A stretch of DNA of 64,000 nt from an uncultured Acidobacteriaceae bacterium (GTDB taxonomy: Bacteria; Acidobacteriota; Terriglobia; Terriglobales; Acidobacteriaceae): assembly GCA_963805245.1 (NCBI GenBank), contig CAWDTG010000006.1, positions 560,799 to 624,798 on the forward strand, read 5' to 3'. The first letter of the stretch is position 1; each line of letters opens with the position of its first letter. Below are positions 20,076-61,619 of this stretch, in pieces. The translations under genes and the position numbers were made by a program. The notes beneath the pieces were generated by a model. The model saw only the letters and a program-made list of their open reading frames with translations. It was not told the DNA's origin and did not search any database.

Positions 20076-20103
20076 CAGTTGCCAGTTGTCAGTTGTCAAT
20101 TGC
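20076..20103. repeat. heptanucleotide-periodic tract (CAGTTGy x4) just after the nuoI stop
   Basis: cagttgc cagttgt cagttgt caattgc, strictly 7-nt phased. Confidence 0.8.
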
Positions 20104-20389
20104 AGGCTTGGGTAAAGCTGGCTTTTAGAGCATGTGTGACAACTTGGTCTGAGTTGGCGGAATGGGACGATTGCGCAAAGTCCAGCCCCAAAATGGGGCG
20201 GAAGAGCTTAGCCCAGCGCTTCAGCGCTGGGTACAGTGGGAAATGAGGCCGAGTCCCCTCAGGGACGGCAGAACAGCAATTCCCTCGACTCGGACTGAAG
20301 TCGTTGCTCGGGATGGCAGACGTTTGATAGTTTCCCACCCTTTCGCAAAAGCGGCGAAAGGATGGGGTACCCGAGAGTTCTTTGCAACA

Positions 20390-20445
20390 ATAGGGGTCCT
20401 TCGACTCCGCCGCGCAAAAGAGGCGCGCCTCCGCTCAGGATGACA
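20390..20445. repeat. family-A 56-bp repeat copy
   Basis: ataggggtccttcgactc-N-gctcaggatgaca with a central GC-rich hairpin. Same 56-bp length as the 22016-22071 and 47867-47922 copies. Confidence 0.8.
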
Positions 20446-20496
20446 AGCGAGGGGAATCGACGTGAGGGAAGGATCGGAACGCTAGGTATTGGGTTT

Positions 20497-20559
20497 GCTA
20501 ATTGCTAAAGGCTAATTGCTAAAGGCTAATTGCTAAAAGCTAATTGCTAAAGGCTAAGT
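20497..20559. repeat. heptanucleotide-periodic tract (GCTAAnn x9) upstream of nuoJ
   Basis: gctaatt gctaaag alternating for nine in-phase units. Ends 6 nt before the nuoJ ATG. Confidence 0.9.
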
Positions 20560-20565
20560 ATTGAT

Positions 20566-21084
20566 ATGACACCGATTGCCACACCGTTCTTCTTCTACTT
20601 TCTGGCGATCATGGCGATCGTCTCCGCTATCGCGGTGATTACGCGGCGGAATCCGGTGCACGCGGCCCTGTCGCTGATTGTAACGCTGCTCTCGCTGGCA
20701 GGCTTTTACCTGATGCTGTATGCGCCATTCGTGGCTGCCGTGCAGATCGTGCTCTACGCCGGCGGAATCATGGTGCTGTTCCTGTTCGTCATCATGCTGG
20801 TGAACCTGGAGCAGAACATCCGCGAGTATCAGTTCAACAAGCAGTGGATCGTGGCGACCCTTGCGGCGCTGGCGCTCGGTGGATTGCTGGTGTTCGTATA
20901 TCGCACCGGCCGCGGCACATTTCCGACAGCTTTCTACCAGAGTTATCGCGGGCTCGAGGGCGACAACACTCAACAGATCGGTGTCTGGCTATACGGCAAT
21001 TACATGCTGCCGTTTGAGATTGCGTCGCTGCTGCTGCTGGTGGCCATCGTAGGCGCGGTGGTCATGGCGAAGAAGAGGATTTGA
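20566..21084 (+). CDS. nuoJ: NADH-quinone oxidoreductase subunit J
   Basis: 172-aa membrane protein with a NuoJ-like N-terminus (AIVSAIAVITRRNPVHAALSLI) and a position consistent with the nuo gene order. Confidence 0.9.
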   Translation: MTPIATPFFFYFLAIMAIVSAIAVITRRNPVHAALSLIVTLLSLAGFYLMLYAPFVAAVQIVLYAGGIMVLFLFVIMLVNLEQNIREYQFNKQWIVATLAALALGGLLVFVYRTGRGTFPTAFYQSYRGLEGDNTQQIGVWLYGNYMLPFEIASLLLLVAIVGAVVMAKKRI

Positions 21085-21122
21085 GGACTTACGAGCGTGA
21101 GTTACGCGTTTTTCACTATCGC

Positions 21123-21257
21123 TTTGTGTCAGGGCACGGCTTCAGCCGTGCCGCAAGAGGTCCGACCACCGACGGGCTTTAGCCCCTGTGCCTCAGTGGC
21201 TAAAGCCGTTTTCTTAACCGCGTTGACGGCACGACTAAAGTCGTGCCCTGACACGAA
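21123..21257. repeat. 135-bp palindromic REPIN/MITE (family B), nuoJ-nuoK spacer
   Basis: Termini tttgtgtcagggca / tgccctgacacgaa. Module-for-module match to 15967-16101. Confidence 0.85.
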
Positions 21258-58776: not shown

Positions 58777-58854
58777 ACTGTTGGAAGGCTGTCCTTCCCC
58801 GCAACTTGAGACGCGCTTTCCGCGTCTATAGCAGTAGGACCTGATTACTACAGG

Positions 58855-59908
58855 ATGCAGCACGGTAATCCAGTTCGGGCCATCGATCCCACGCCGGCGC
58901 CAGCGCGACGGCGGGTATCTGCTGCTGGCTATCCTGCTGATGATGGCGCTGATGATCATCGCTGCCACCGTCGAGGCTCCCCGGATAGTCCAGCAGATGA
59001 AACGCGATCGCGAAGAGGAGATGATCCATCGCGGCACTGAGTACGCTCGAGCCATCAAGAAGTTCTACAAGAAGTTTGGCCGTTATCCGACCAACCTCGA
59101 GCAGCTCGACAATACCAACCAGCTCCGTTTCCTCCGCAAGCGGTACAAAGATCCGCTCACCAAGGATGGCAAGTGGACGCTGTTGCACTATGGCGACATC
59201 CAGACGCTGCTCAACCCCAACGCTCCCGGAACGCCTGCTGCCGCGCTGGGCTCGCAGGGACAAGGAGGTACGTTGGGTGCCGCTCCGAGTTCAACGTCGG
59301 GCGCGTGCGCCGTCCACGAACGGTCCTGGCTCGGACGGTAGCAGCAGCATTGGCGGACCAGCCCAAGGTACGCAGAGTGCTATTGGTCTGGCTTCGGACG
59401 GGAGCGCAGGAGGTTCGACCGGAGGTGCTGCTGGCGCTGCACAGTCGGGCAGCAGCAGCGTCTAGGGATCAGTCCCTTTGCCAATAGCGTCAACGGACAG
59501 ACCGGCGCTCCCGGTTCTTCGAGCAGCAACATTTTCGGACAAAACTCTGCCGGTGGTAATCAGACCTTTGGCGGTGGTGCGATCGTTGGTGTCGCGAGCT
59601 TGAGTAAAGATCCTACCATTCGCATTTACAACAAGAAGAAGAAATACAACGAATGGCAGTTCATCTATGACCCAACCTCTGACCGGCCGAATGTTTTGCT
59701 GAAGCGGTCCATACCAGCCAGTCATTCTGGGTGGAGCGCAGGTGGGTACACCTGCGGGGCAGATGAATGGCCAGCAGCAGAGCCCATTCGGAGCAGCAAC
59801 AGAGCACATTCGGCCAGCAACCAGGTAATACCCCACAGCCGACGGGTCCGGGACAAAGCGGTCCAGGGAAGCGCATTTCCATCCAATCAGAATCAGCCAC
59901 AACAGTAG
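58855..59908 (+). pseudogene. pseudopilin/GspG-like low-complexity (Gly/Ser/Gln-rich) protein, fragmented over several frames
   Basis: Hydrophobic N-terminus (GYLLLAILLMMALMIIAAT), conserved-looking blocks (RGTEYARAIKKFYKKFGRYP; IRIYNKKKKYNEWQFIYDP) and multiple frame switches in the G/S-rich middle. Confidence 0.4.
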
Positions 59909-60063
59909 AGGAAGCTGCTTTCACCGTTCCCAATCCCTTGAGCAGAGTCGAAGGATTCTGCAGTTGTCAGTCTGAGCGAAGCAAGGCAGCGACGCGACGG
60001 ACTAGTTCGATGCGCAGAGCAGTATCTCCCGGGACGACTGCCGCCTGGATCGTTTGCAGCTCG

Positions 60064-60486
60064 TCACTGCGGCGCTTCACCGCCGTGCAGCATGAGGCCA
60101 CCTACCACCAAGAACAGCGTAGCTATGCTGAAGATGATAGAGCCGATGAACGTACCCAGAAAACAGAACATGAGGACGCTTGTTGCGGCGGGAATCACGG
60201 TACAGAGTAATACTAGTCCCCGACCTCCCGGCAATCGGCTGGCCCAGATGATAACCGGGCAGAGCACGATTCCTGTAACCGAGAAACTCCACCATAGTGC
60301 TTTAAATACGTTGAGGATCTCAGGACCGGCGTTGGTGGCCGCAACCCGCGGCATGGCGAAGGTATATCCGTACATGTGCAGGATTGCTCCGAGAAGCACA
60401 AGCAGACTTCCGATCATGACTAGCAAGCGAGCAACTTTCAAGCCTTCCTCCCTGGAGTGTACATCGGTAGTAGCTAGTGCCGACAA
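60064..60486 (-). CDS. hypothetical four-helix membrane protein
   Basis: 140-aa ORF with four hydrophobic segments. No family recognised. Confidence 0.5.
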   Translation of the reverse strand: MSALATTDVHSREEGLKVARLLVMIGSLLVLLGAILHMYGYTFAMPRVAATNAGPEILNVFKALWWSFSVTGIVLCPVIIWASRLPGGRGLVLLCTVIPAATSVLMFCFLGTFIGSIIFSIATLFLVVGGLMLHGGEAPQ

Positions 60487-60492
60487 CCGTCT

Positions 60493-61554
60493 TTATGCCC
60501 CTGACCCCTGCTGAGTAAACTCCACCAGCAATTGCAGTCGTTGGCGCGCGTGGCCGCTATCGATCGCGTAGGCAGCCAGCGGCACGGCGTCGCTGATGCG
60601 ATCAGCGTGTCCGGCGGCGACCAGCGCGGCAGCAGCGTTCAGCAAGACCACATCGCGGCGGCAAGAGCGCTCGCCATCGAGAATGCGCGCGGATAATGGC
60701 CGCATTCTGCTGCGCGTCGCCTCCCGCGATGTCGTCGAGGGGCGCCCGCTGTAAGCCAAAATCTTCCGGCGTGACTTCGTACACGCGGACTTGACCGTTG
60801 CGAACTTCGGCAACTTTGCTGGGTCCGGAGATGGTAATCTCGTCGAGCCCGTCGCGTCCGTGGACCACCAGCGCCCGGCGCAATCCGAGTTCGCTCAGCG
60901 CCTCGGCTAGCTTTTCCACCAGATCGGCGGAATAAACCCCGACCACCTGCGCCGAAGCGCGCGCCGGGTTGGTCAGCGGGCCTAGGAGGTTAAAGACGGT
61001 GCGCAGCCGTAACTCGCGTCGCGCCGGTTGCACATATTTCATCGCCGAATGCATGGCCGGGGCAAACAGGAAAGCAATGCCGGTTTCGCGTAGGCAGGCA
61101 GCGATGCGCGCCGGCGGCAGGTTGATGTTCACGCCCAGCGCCTCCATCACGTCAGCCGAGCCGCACTTCGAGCTGATGCTGCGGTTGCCATGTTTCGCAA
61201 CTCTCACACCAGCACCAGCGATAGCCAGCGCCGTCGCGGTGGAGATGTTAAACGTGCCGCTAGCGTCTCCGCCGGTGCCGCAGGTGTCCACCAGCGCATC
61301 GCGCTCCGGTGCCGCTCAGGTCAAGCGCTTCGCCATCCTCGGTCTGTAATGGCAGCGGCCTCGTCGCGAATGGCCTGCGCAAAGCCAACGATCTCCTCCA
61401 CCGTCTCGCCCTTCATGTGCAGCGCGACCAGCAGCGCTGCGATCTGCGCGTCGGTGGCTTTGCCCTGCAGGACCTGCGACATGACTTCGCGTGCTTCCGC
61501 GCGGGTGAGGGAAGTGCGGTGGTTGGCGATCTTGTGCAGCGCGTCGAGGAGCAT
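60493..61554 (-). pseudogene. trpD: anthranilate phosphoribosyltransferase, at least three frame breaks (near 60690 and two near 61300-61330)
   Basis: Pieces in order: [25 protein letters not shown]...[13 protein letters not shown]; [10 protein letters not shown]; [26 protein letters not shown]...; [21 protein letters not shown].... Confidence 0.9.
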
Positions 61555-61563
61555 GGGGAAAGA

Positions 61564-61619
61564 AGCAGCTAGCAACTAGCGATGAGCAACTAGTTCTTGG
61601 CATTTAGCTGTTAGCGTAG
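61564..61619. repeat. heptad-periodic tract (AGCnnnn x8) upstream of trpD
   Basis: AGC (or AGT/GGC) recurs every 7 nt from 61564 to 61613. Confidence 0.75.

Follow-up and report, generated by a model that had tools for sequence, protein, structure and literature searches.

Tandem heptamer arrays at gene junctions in Terriglobales and their possible role as Shine-Dalgarno-free translation leaders

The DNA described here is a 64,000-nt stretch, hereafter the window, of contig CAWDTG010000006.1 from an uncultured Acidobacteriaceae bacterium (Acidobacteriota, Terriglobales), in which tandem arrays of 7-nt units (heptamers) lie between the genes. With gene names checked by NCBIfam and Pfam, the plus strand carries nuoD, nuoH, nuoI, nuoJ, nuoK, nuoL, nuoM and nuoN, together with a lolA-like gene and genes of the T2SS-F (pilC/gspF-type) and T2SS-E (PilB-type) families. 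The minus strand carries panE, an M24 peptidase gene, hspR, a GNAT acetyltransferase gene, dnaJ, a PIN-domain gene and dnaK, and also trpD. The unit families in the window are GCTAAnn, GCTGAnn, CAGTTGY, TAGTGGn and GCGAAnn.

Tandem Repeats Finder (TRF) reported period-7 arrays at nearly every coordinate named in a preliminary description of this DNA. A lag-p self-match scan with a threshold of at least 80% self-match over 28 nt detected nine tracts at p = 7; the remaining values of p between 4 and 12 gave none. Because the units have two free positions, we also used a column scan, which requires at least four invariant columns across four successive units. It found 18 tracts (693 nt) at period 7 against 0–2 at each of the other periods from 5 to 12, and about none in shuffled sequence. 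All window tracts are intergenic. The earlier statement that tracts of strict 7-nt periodicity are confined to spacers was upheld, with 13 of its 17 tracts recovered by the strict column scan. The weaker tracts are about 39060–39095 (3.9 copies by TRF), about 52606–52650 (period 15 by TRF), 55944–55971 (16% indels) and 61564–61619 (69% matches). Three arrays had been missed: 22084–22120 (GCGAAnn), 39133–39164 and 39655–39691. No heptamer tract between window positions 1 and 20000 passes the scan; the genes of that part mostly change direction from one to the next, and its few co-directional gaps, such as nuoD to nuoH (17350–18334), carry none.

For comparison we fetched 80 loci around nuoL (labelled L001 and so on). 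By NuoL, the best relatives are metagenome-assembled genomes from Terriglobales (Acidobacteriota), among them Ca. Korobacteraceae, with identities of 94% and below; the analysis assigned the window to a soil acidobacterium of the order Terriglobales, family Ca. Korobacteraceae. An excess at period 7 only is present at the nuoL loci of nearly all Terriglobales, and is rare or absent around the same operon in Verrucomicrobiota, Bryobacterales and delta-proteobacterial loci. By the column test, the Terriglobales loci hold 147 tracts in 558 kb (2.6 per 10 kb, or about one array per 4 kb), and the other lineages with the same operon hold 30 in 944 kb (0.32 per 10 kb), an 8-fold lower density. Stop-to-stop ORF (open reading frame) space accounts for 86% of the DNA, yet 116 of the 147 tracts lie outside it; of the other 31, nearly all are within a few tens of nucleotides of an ORF end.

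The arrays are placed close to the ends of the spacers. Among 69 tract-bearing co-directional spacers, the first tract lies within 10 nt of the stop codon in 43 (random mean 17, maximum 29) and the last within 12 nt of the start codon in 36 (random mean 20, maximum 29), the null being random placement in 2000 trials. A stop- or start-adjacent tract occurs in 60 of the 69 (random mean 30, maximum 42), so that the proposed association with start and stop codons exceeds random placement. The exact contacts that had been reported were also found, with tracts ending at an ATG (nuoL at 22178, nuoM at 24496) or including a stop codon (the dnaJ TAG at 39781–39783).

Within the spacers the arrays follow a fixed order. 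Read in the sense direction, the plan is a stop codon, an array of nnTYAGC, CAGTTGY or TAGTGGn units, a loop, an array of GCTRAnn or nAACTGA units, and a start codon. The loop often contains inserts resembling repetitive extragenic palindromic (REP) sequences or miniature transposable elements with inverted repeats (MITEs), and the start codon stands directly at the second array or follows a normal Shine-Dalgarno sequence (SD). A TYAG/CAGT-type array therefore marks the left gene boundary and a CTRA/ACTG-type array the right, which in an operon mRNA would read stop, (nnUYAGC)n, loop, (GCURAnn)n, start. In spacers between two plus-strand genes, the left position holds 29 TYAG-type and 9 CTRA-type arrays and the right position 5 and 38 (p = 4e-9). 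An independent sample, (GCTAATT)n with n of at least 3 in metagenome contigs of at least 52% G+C, gave 15 forward arrays followed by a gene start and 19 reverse arrays after a gene stop, with 7 and 5 of the opposite arrangements (34 versus 12). Low-GC metagenome contigs gave no order bias of (GCTAATT)n arrays. The rule is strand-symmetric and predicts the same for convergent as for divergent gene pairs, so it is a property of the spacer palindrome; as a proof of selection at the RNA level we rejected it. This order, the hairpin arms described below and the REP/MITE-like inserts between arrays are features that the preliminary description had missed.

The window arrays, one by one, are as follows.

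20073–20104 (+): stop-proximal array (CAGTTGY)x4, starting directly after the nuoI stop TGA (20071–20073).
20494–20560 (+): start-proximal array (GCTAAnn)x9, with GCTAATT/GCTAAAG as its 14-nt super-period; the nuoJ ATG (20566), which has no SD, is 5 nt beyond its end.
21594–21626 (+): stop-proximal array (CAGTGRC-like)x4, 8 nt past the nuoK stop (21586).
22084–22120 (+): array (GCGAAnn)x5, the first part of a composite module found at other nuo junctions in relatives.
22124–22153 (+): array (GCTGAYA)x3-4, weakly complementary to 21594–21626 (z −2.0).
22151–22177 (+): start-proximal array (GCTARnn)x3.6, flush with the nuoL ATG (22178); its final two units are kept in L001, L002, L081, L082 and L088.
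24452–24495 (+): start-proximal array (GCTRAnn)x6, flush with the nuoM ATG (24496).
36315–36352 (−): 5′ hairpin arm (TTAGCnn)x5, holding the panE stop TAG (36347–36349); duplex −36.3 kcal/mol, z −4.4.
36260–36293 (−): 3′ hairpin arm (GCTAAnA)x4.5, ending 31 nt before the GTG (36228) of an LLM/F420 oxidoreductase gene, which has its own SD, GAGGAG.
38431–38500 (−): degenerate start-proximal array of about 10 GCTAATT-like units; the M24 peptidase gene (start near 38419) lies downstream of it and a REP-like element upstream.
39739–39787 (−): 5′ hairpin arm (TTAGCAA)x6, a perfect repeat, holding the dnaJ stop TAG (39781–39783); z −3.2.
39655–39691 (−): 3′ hairpin arm (GCYAAnT)x4, extending into the start of the GNAT acetyltransferase ORF (GTG 39669).
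39133–39164 (−): 5′ arm (nnTCAGC-type)x4, with an out-of-frame TAA just before it; the called GNAT ORF reads through; z −2.0.
39058–39100 (−): 3′ arm (GCTGAnn)x5, holding the TGA (39079–39081) that ends the GNAT ORF; followed by the SD GAGAGGA and the hspR ATG (39047).
42641–42677 (−): 5′ hairpin arm (nnTCAGC)x4.5, holding the dnaK stop TAA (42674–42676); duplex −40.3 kcal/mol, z −3.9.
42546–42574 (−): 3′ hairpin arm (GCTGAnn)x4, pairing with 42641–42677 across a 66-nt loop of unique sequence.
52518–52650 (+): weak inverted pair after the stop of the lolA-like gene (52517); z −2.9.
52600–52650 (+): 3′ arm of the lolA-side pair, a GCTGAYA-type array, 41 nt before an ATG (52692).
53902–53935 (+): stop-proximal array (TAGTGGn)x4, directly after the stop TAG (53900–53902) of the T2SS-F (pilC/gspF-type) gene.
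54013–54064 (+): start-proximal array (GCTARTT)x7; the T2SS-E/PilB-type ATPase gene starts 7–16 nt further on (54072 or 54081).
55739–55775 (+): stop-proximal array (TTAGCAn)x5, 2 nt past the stop TAA (55734–55736) of the T2SS-E/PilB-type ATPase gene.
55940–55975 (+): start-proximal degenerate array (TTGAAAC/CTGAAAC), flush with an ATG (55976).
61560–61622 (−): degenerate array, TAGTTGC/TAGCTGC in the sense direction, ending about 10 nt before the trpD ATG (about 61557), which has no SD.

The stop codons of dnaJ, panE and dnaK thus fall within the first unit of an array. Some of the genes in the list appear interrupted. dnaK (42674–44612, −) consists of two overlapping ORFs that match HSP70 profile positions 1–365 and 366–599, the T2SS-F gene (52732–53902, +) is split between its two T2SSF domains, and trpD (60602–61557, −) also appears broken. 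Either they are pseudogenes or they reflect single-base indel errors of assembly. Since dnaK, the T2SS-F gene and possibly trpD look frameshifted, the assembly may contain single-base indels. The GNAT acetyltransferase ORF (39079–39669, −) has either an array-encoded tail or a frameshift error.

The arrays that stand before start codons differ from other leaders in their translation signals. An SD-like 4-mer precedes 2 of the 36 nuo genes with an array at most 40 nt upstream, against 18 of 64 other nuo genes, and dnaK in the window has the SD AGGAGG, which agrees with the observation made earlier that array-preceded genes lack one. In 29 of 36 start-proximal arrays the unit contains a sense-strand stop codon, where composition predicts 33% (p = 9e-9), and start-proximal arrays carry sense stop codons in all three frames. 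The stop is sense-only in 13 and antisense-only in 2; in stop-proximal arrays stop codons are strand-symmetric, 10 versus 10. The suggestion of stop codons in every frame therefore stands for the sense strand and fails for the antisense strand, which is not comparably enriched. The related suggestion of six-frame insulation fails on the 13 versus 2 split, and CAGTTGY, TCAGCnn and GCTCAnn units are stop-free on one strand. Folded alone, start-proximal arrays are weakly structured (z −1.9 to +1.8), with a mostly open centroid structure. In soil and permafrost metatranscriptome contigs the arrays are continuous with both flanking nuo genes; one contig of 381 nt joins the nuoL 3′ end to nuoM across a GCTGAnn array. 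Such contigs imply that the arrays are transcribed within the operon RNA, with DNA carry-over possible. No public RNA-seq run contained the window, 9% of words being the most that any had in common with it; for L001, a related metagenome-assembled genome, assembled metatranscriptome contigs show the arrays' presence in RNA.

Many arrays are complementary to a partner in the same spacer. Compared with a column-permuted null, which shuffles heptamer columns and keeps composition and periodicity, 20 of 34 array pairs were significantly complementary (p <= 0.02). The window pairs are panE to the LLM gene (z −4.4), dnaJ to GNAT (−3.2), the pair after dnaK (−3.9) and that between 52517 and 52692 (−2.9). 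GNAT to hspR and the nuoK-proximal array with the GCTGAYA array are marginal (both −2.0). No complementary partner exists for the arrays that precede nuoJ, nuoM, the T2SS-E (PilB-type) gene and the M24 peptidase gene. In more distant Terriglobales many spacers are a single hairpin that spans the entire spacer, with z down to −13. The arms remain complementary although the unit differs between lineages (GCTAATT, GCTGAnn, AGCTAGA, GAACTGA, GCTCACA, GAAACTG and GGTACTG). RNAalifold on seven nuoL–nuoM spacers gave 17 pairs, 6 of them changed on both sides, from few independent events; the same arm change recurs in successive units. Sense and antisense duplex energies are alike, and a DNA palindrome accordingly fits the data as well as an RNA hairpin.

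The inverted pairs could in principle be RNA stem-loops that shape the operon mRNA through RNase III or RNase E processing, 3′-end protection or partial attenuation, and so set different levels for the cistrons as REP or intercistronic hairpins do. The end-to-end folds, the significant pairs and the compensatory changes are what such a role would leave behind; the 5′ arm begins at the stop codon, like REP elements near stops, and T-runs stand behind many 3′ arms in relatives. We nevertheless find this role unlikely. Partnerless arrays are frequent in the window's own family (before nuoJ and nuoM, on both sides of the T2SS-E/PilB-type gene, and at the M24 gene), no array fits the terminator consensus when a canonical terminator is present at 30762–30802, and the equal energies on the two strands are explained as well by a DNA palindrome.

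Three more specific proposals about the hairpins were discarded. A hairpin that brings stop and start together or hides the start received no support, the number of paired bases upstream of the start being equal with and without arrays. Pairing by G·U wobbles only, of CAGUUGY and UAGUGGn with GCUAAUU (6/7 wobble positions) in the window's family, showed promising first signs: the sense minimum free energy was below the antisense in 49 of 70 spacers (p = 3e-4), and sense-compatible transitions numbered 76 against 52. The duplexes match column-permuted arrays, however (z about +0.2 to −1.2), and in the cluster of minus-strand genes the more stable duplex is the antisense one. Identity with intrinsic terminators, defined by a G+C-rich stem with a U tract behind it, was rejected because none of 21 terminator-like sites coincides with an array; the canonical one lies away from them, and the T-runs follow 3′ arms in some relatives. 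Rfam gave no match on any array in the window.

How the arrays change among relatives bears on their origin. A close-relative set was defined by identical NuoK, with coding DNA 85–88% identical to the window. Its pre-nuoL array ranges from 3 to 8 units. Arrays also contain 14-nt block duplications at 95% identity, which point to recent slippage. Spacer lengths are as follows.

nuoI–nuoJ: −4 to 324 nt in relatives, 492 nt in the window.
nuoJ–nuoK: 1 to 1037 nt in relatives (with inserted ORFs), 196 nt in the window.
nuoK–nuoL: 61 to 578 nt in relatives, 591 nt in the window.
nuoL–nuoM: 50 to 645 nt in relatives, 188 nt in the window.

In most Terriglobales, over NuoL identities of 66–94%, nuoL is immediately preceded by an array, and arrays also lie between it and nuoM; the junction retains arrays while the unit sequence turns over. 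The notion of conserved presence at orthologous spacers consequently holds for nuoK–nuoL and nuoL–nuoM across Terriglobales, and breaks down at nuoI/nuoJ and nuoJ/nuoK in close relatives.

The ORFs inserted between nuoJ and nuoK lie at 2664–3497 in L081, L084, L085 and L087, at 2499–3446 in L083 and at 8790–9631 in L001. One of the encoded products (277 aa) matches no Pfam family, another (315 aa) contains an Lcl_C domain, and the insert is absent from related transcripts.

Taken together, we favour the reading that these are slippage-born heptamer repeats that are tolerated at operon junctions and may serve there as SD-free translation leaders, to which, on sequence evidence, we assign a probability of about 0.5. 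Replication slippage with a preference for 7 nt would create the arrays and keep them uniform; we infer this origin from the block duplications and the differences in copy number. With 7 not a multiple of 3, arrays would persist only where they break no reading frame. nuoJ, nuoL and nuoM lack an SD and yet must be translated, so the start-proximal array itself is probably their translation-initiation region. Being A/U-rich, weakly structured and free of an SD, it would recruit ribosomes through ribosomal protein S1 at a standby site or by re-initiation, and it would terminate ribosomes arriving in any of the three frames just before the start. A complementary upstream arm, where present, would fold the spacer away as a hairpin, REP-like inserts included. 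Selection would act mainly as a filter on the units and orientations that are tolerated.

Several observations weigh against this reading. The arrays are dispensable at individual junctions, as nuoI and nuoJ overlap by 4 nt in L005, L018 and L083, and nuoJ and nuoK lie 1 nt apart in L004, L086, L088 and L090. Outgroup spacers at the nuoK–L and nuoL–M junctions measure about −13 to 100 nt and are array-free, and if it was the arrays that created the spacer, their contact with stop and start codons is in part trivial. Start codons outside nuo were called heuristically, which may inflate the enrichment of stop codons, and start-proximal leaders are not significantly less structured than shuffled sequence. 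The order rule reads alike on both strands in every gene arrangement. Template switching in a quasi-palindrome could maintain the complementarity of the arms in the absence of selection, and the share of spacers in which a closing helix joins the stop region to the start region is no higher with arrays (21 of 48) than in tract-free spacers (26 of 68).

Much of this would also suit a neutral or selfish by-product, in which polymerase slippage in 7-nt steps lets arrays grow wherever no frame breaks, with no effect on expression, and in which the order rule and the stop content reflect only seeding (for example from a heptamer with a stop codon) and harmlessness. We take this possibility seriously but do not expect it to hold. 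Heptamers are the commonest class of long simple sequence repeat (SSR) in many phyla, and slippage has been proposed for them (Mrazek 2007 as cited in PMC4679880; PMC4692102). The presence and length of arrays differ greatly among close relatives, the 147 tracts comprise 72 different unit consensus sequences, the stop codons of upstream genes fall in the first unit, and no structural signal is specific to the sense strand. Against neutrality, arrays at nuoK–L and nuoL–M persist across 66–94% NuoL identity despite unit turnover, concerted changes keep the arms complementary, sense-only stop codons are in strong excess before start codons, and the density is 8-fold higher in Terriglobales than in other lineages with the same operon. 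Essential genes also start directly at arrays, which hence cannot be irrelevant to initiation.

The unit repertoire invites a further explanation. Unit pairs that differ by at most one mismatch make up 19.9% of pairs within a genome against 9.4% between genomes (permutation p = 0.002), as would be expected if each array were a platform with many sites for the binding of a protein that covers about 7 nt (a cold-shock-domain protein, S1 or a nucleoid protein) and co-evolves with the units of each genome. A unit of five conserved and two free positions suits a binding site, and candidate binders have been proposed for the TAACTGA repeat (PMC4679880) and for Nostoc heptamers (bioRxiv 2022.06.06.494920). 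A single genome, and even a single spacer, can contain several unrelated unit families, however, as with GCGAAnn, GCTGAnn and GCTAAnn before nuoL, and the 147 tracts show 72 unit consensus sequences; we consider such platforms quite unlikely. A broader proposal, which joins binding to initiation, is that CURA-type arrays (GCUAAnn, GCUGAnn, nAACUGA and the TAACUGA of Beggiatoa) might be a general SD-independent signal of cistron junctions, evolved repeatedly in Terriglobales, Beggiatoaceae, cyanobacteria and Bacteroidetes. Such a signal would stop ribosomes in three frames at the next start and be recognised by a conserved factor that covers about 7 nt (S1 or a cold-shock-domain protein), coupling termination to re-initiation over long spacers, with the upstream UYAG-type array as a structural partner that masks or unmasks it. 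We offer this as a speculation and think it rather doubtful.

The composite module (GCGAAnn)n-(GCTGAnn)n-GCTAA lies before nuoL in the window, L002 and L083, and before nuoM in L082 and L088. A module shared between different junctions, in spacers that also contain true REP/MITE-like repeats, might suggest that the array pairs are small mobile elements of the REP or MITE type which insert at gene junctions. This we regard as very unlikely, since the loops between the arms are unique and show no similarity across loci, no target duplications or associated transposase were seen, and the units vary from spacer to spacer.

Variation in copy number between related species could likewise recall phase-variable contingency spacers, one of the roles suggested earlier, in which expression is switched as units are frequently gained or lost. 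The arrays stand beside housekeeping genes (nuo, dnaJ, dnaK and trpD) and outside reading frames, and the L001 array at 7946–7977 is identical, with no difference in copy number, among contigs of a single strain recovered from four independent samples of 2014 to 2021, where contigs hide rare variants. We see next to no chance that this explanation is right.

We return to the favoured reading, slippage-born repeats that may act as SD-free leaders, to compare the arrays with known heptamer repeats. They are intergenic heptanucleotide microsatellites of the same kind as the short tandemly repeated repetitive (STRR) sequences, the long simple sequence repeats (LSSR), TAACTGA and GGGAATC, with units of their own. 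At least 3–4 head-to-tail copies beyond chance, a non-coding bias with dispersal, and variation in length and sequence between relatives are all found here. The earlier comparison with STRR was apt, as was the remark that the literature offers no established function for such repeats. In PMC4679880, PMC4692102 and bioRxiv 2022.06.06.494920, no function or binding partner is shown for tandem heptamers between bacterial genes. Like the STRR of heterocystous cyanobacteria and LSSR (Mazel 1990 and Mrazek 2007, as cited in PMC4679880), the arrays are dispersed non-coding tandem heptamers for which slippage is proposed; the heptamer is the dominant class of long SSR (Mrazek 2007, cited there). Tandem copies of STRR1-3 (CCCCAGT, TTGGTCA, CAACAGT), TAACTGA, GGGAATC, GGGGATT and two Nostoc heptamers occur neither in the window nor in the Terriglobales loci, and searchable literature yielded no description of heptamer repeats in Acidobacteria. 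Unlike for STRR, the host here is an acidobacterium (Acidobacteriota, Terriglobales), with no STRR1-3 units. To our knowledge, the order rule and the hairpin pairing have not been reported for STRR.

The TAACTGA repeat of marine Beggiatoaceae, some cyanobacteria and Bacteroidetes (PMC4679880) offers a close parallel. In Beggiatoa its arrays lie in forward orientation just upstream of SD-less start codons (MacGregor 2015, PMC4679880). Shared with the present arrays are an intergenic tandem layout, mostly forward and a few nucleotides upstream of starts that lack an SD, downstream genes of no common function, and stop codons in the unit, TAA and TGA in the case of TAACTGA. Some units of relatives, GAACTGA and CAACTGA, are one letter off it (L012, L014, L020, L056). 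Unlike TAACTGA, the arrays here belong to many unit families rather than one and to a different phylum, and stop-side partner arrays and inverted pairs occur often, where the Beggiatoa genome that was studied has a single indirect repeat (PMC4679880).

The GGGAATC/GGGGAYT repeats of Xanthomonas and Nostoc (Rehm et al. 2015, PMC4692102) resemble the arrays in having conserved and free positions, (GGGANTN)n, and typically about 4 units. They are about 90% intergenic, mostly between co-directional genes and near the end of the upstream ORF, with many convergent inverted pairs; between species the locus persists with variable length and sequence. The repeats are transcribed, with no function found for them (PMC4692102). 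Those repeats are G-rich and quadruplex-capable, whereas the units here cannot form quadruplexes. The density here of about one per 4 kb, if the sampled loci are typical, is far above the approximately 186 per genome given there. Similarities extend to enterobacterial REP sequences, bacterial interspersed mosaic elements (BIME) and intercistronic stem-loops, which are also intergenic, transcribed, imperfect palindromes just after stop codons in operons. Unlike in these, the arms here are tandem 7-nt arrays around unique loops and showed no conserved REP head; no RAYT transposase was found, and no search was aimed at one.

Tandem heptamers have been known since 1990 and are unexplained, and Terriglobales present an unusually dense and orderly case. 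What is new is a dense acidobacterial example with many unit families and a clear order rule, in which essential respiratory-chain genes start directly at an array with no SD. As Terriglobales include cultured strains, the heptamer question can be put to experiment. For annotation, array-adjacent starts lack an SD, some ORFs read into arrays, and assemblers break contigs at arrays.

Other elements share the spacers with the arrays. REP/MITE-like palindromic repeat families lie between them, for example GGGTCCTTCGACTC...GCGCGC...GCTCAGGATGACA and TGTCATCCTGAGCG..., with copies at 20374–20448 and 22000–22074, at 20256–20318 and 24365–24427, and further at 38540–38590, 53935–53985, 55790–55940 and 61700–61750. 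The only Rfam hit, an Acido-Lenti-1 RNA (RF01687, 47.6 bits), lies at 20184–20231 (−) between the arrays of the nuoI–nuoJ spacer. A similar copy is present near 21882–21960, and the matched motif appears to belong to a group of several REP-like elements that are dispersed. A putative 51-codon ORF (MLSFNNDDGRWYLITAGVDG...) was read by eye at 42325–42480 (−), in the stretch from the post-dnaK hairpin to the PIN-domain gene. The nuoM ORF (24496–26427) contains an in-frame 39/78-nt tandem repeat with hairpin potential (GCAGGCCTTTAGGCCTGC...) at 26196–26341, which encodes a repeated GQAF..ASSATxVEQAFRPASG peptide in a C-terminal extension; among relatives, NuoM ranges from 572 to 643 aa.

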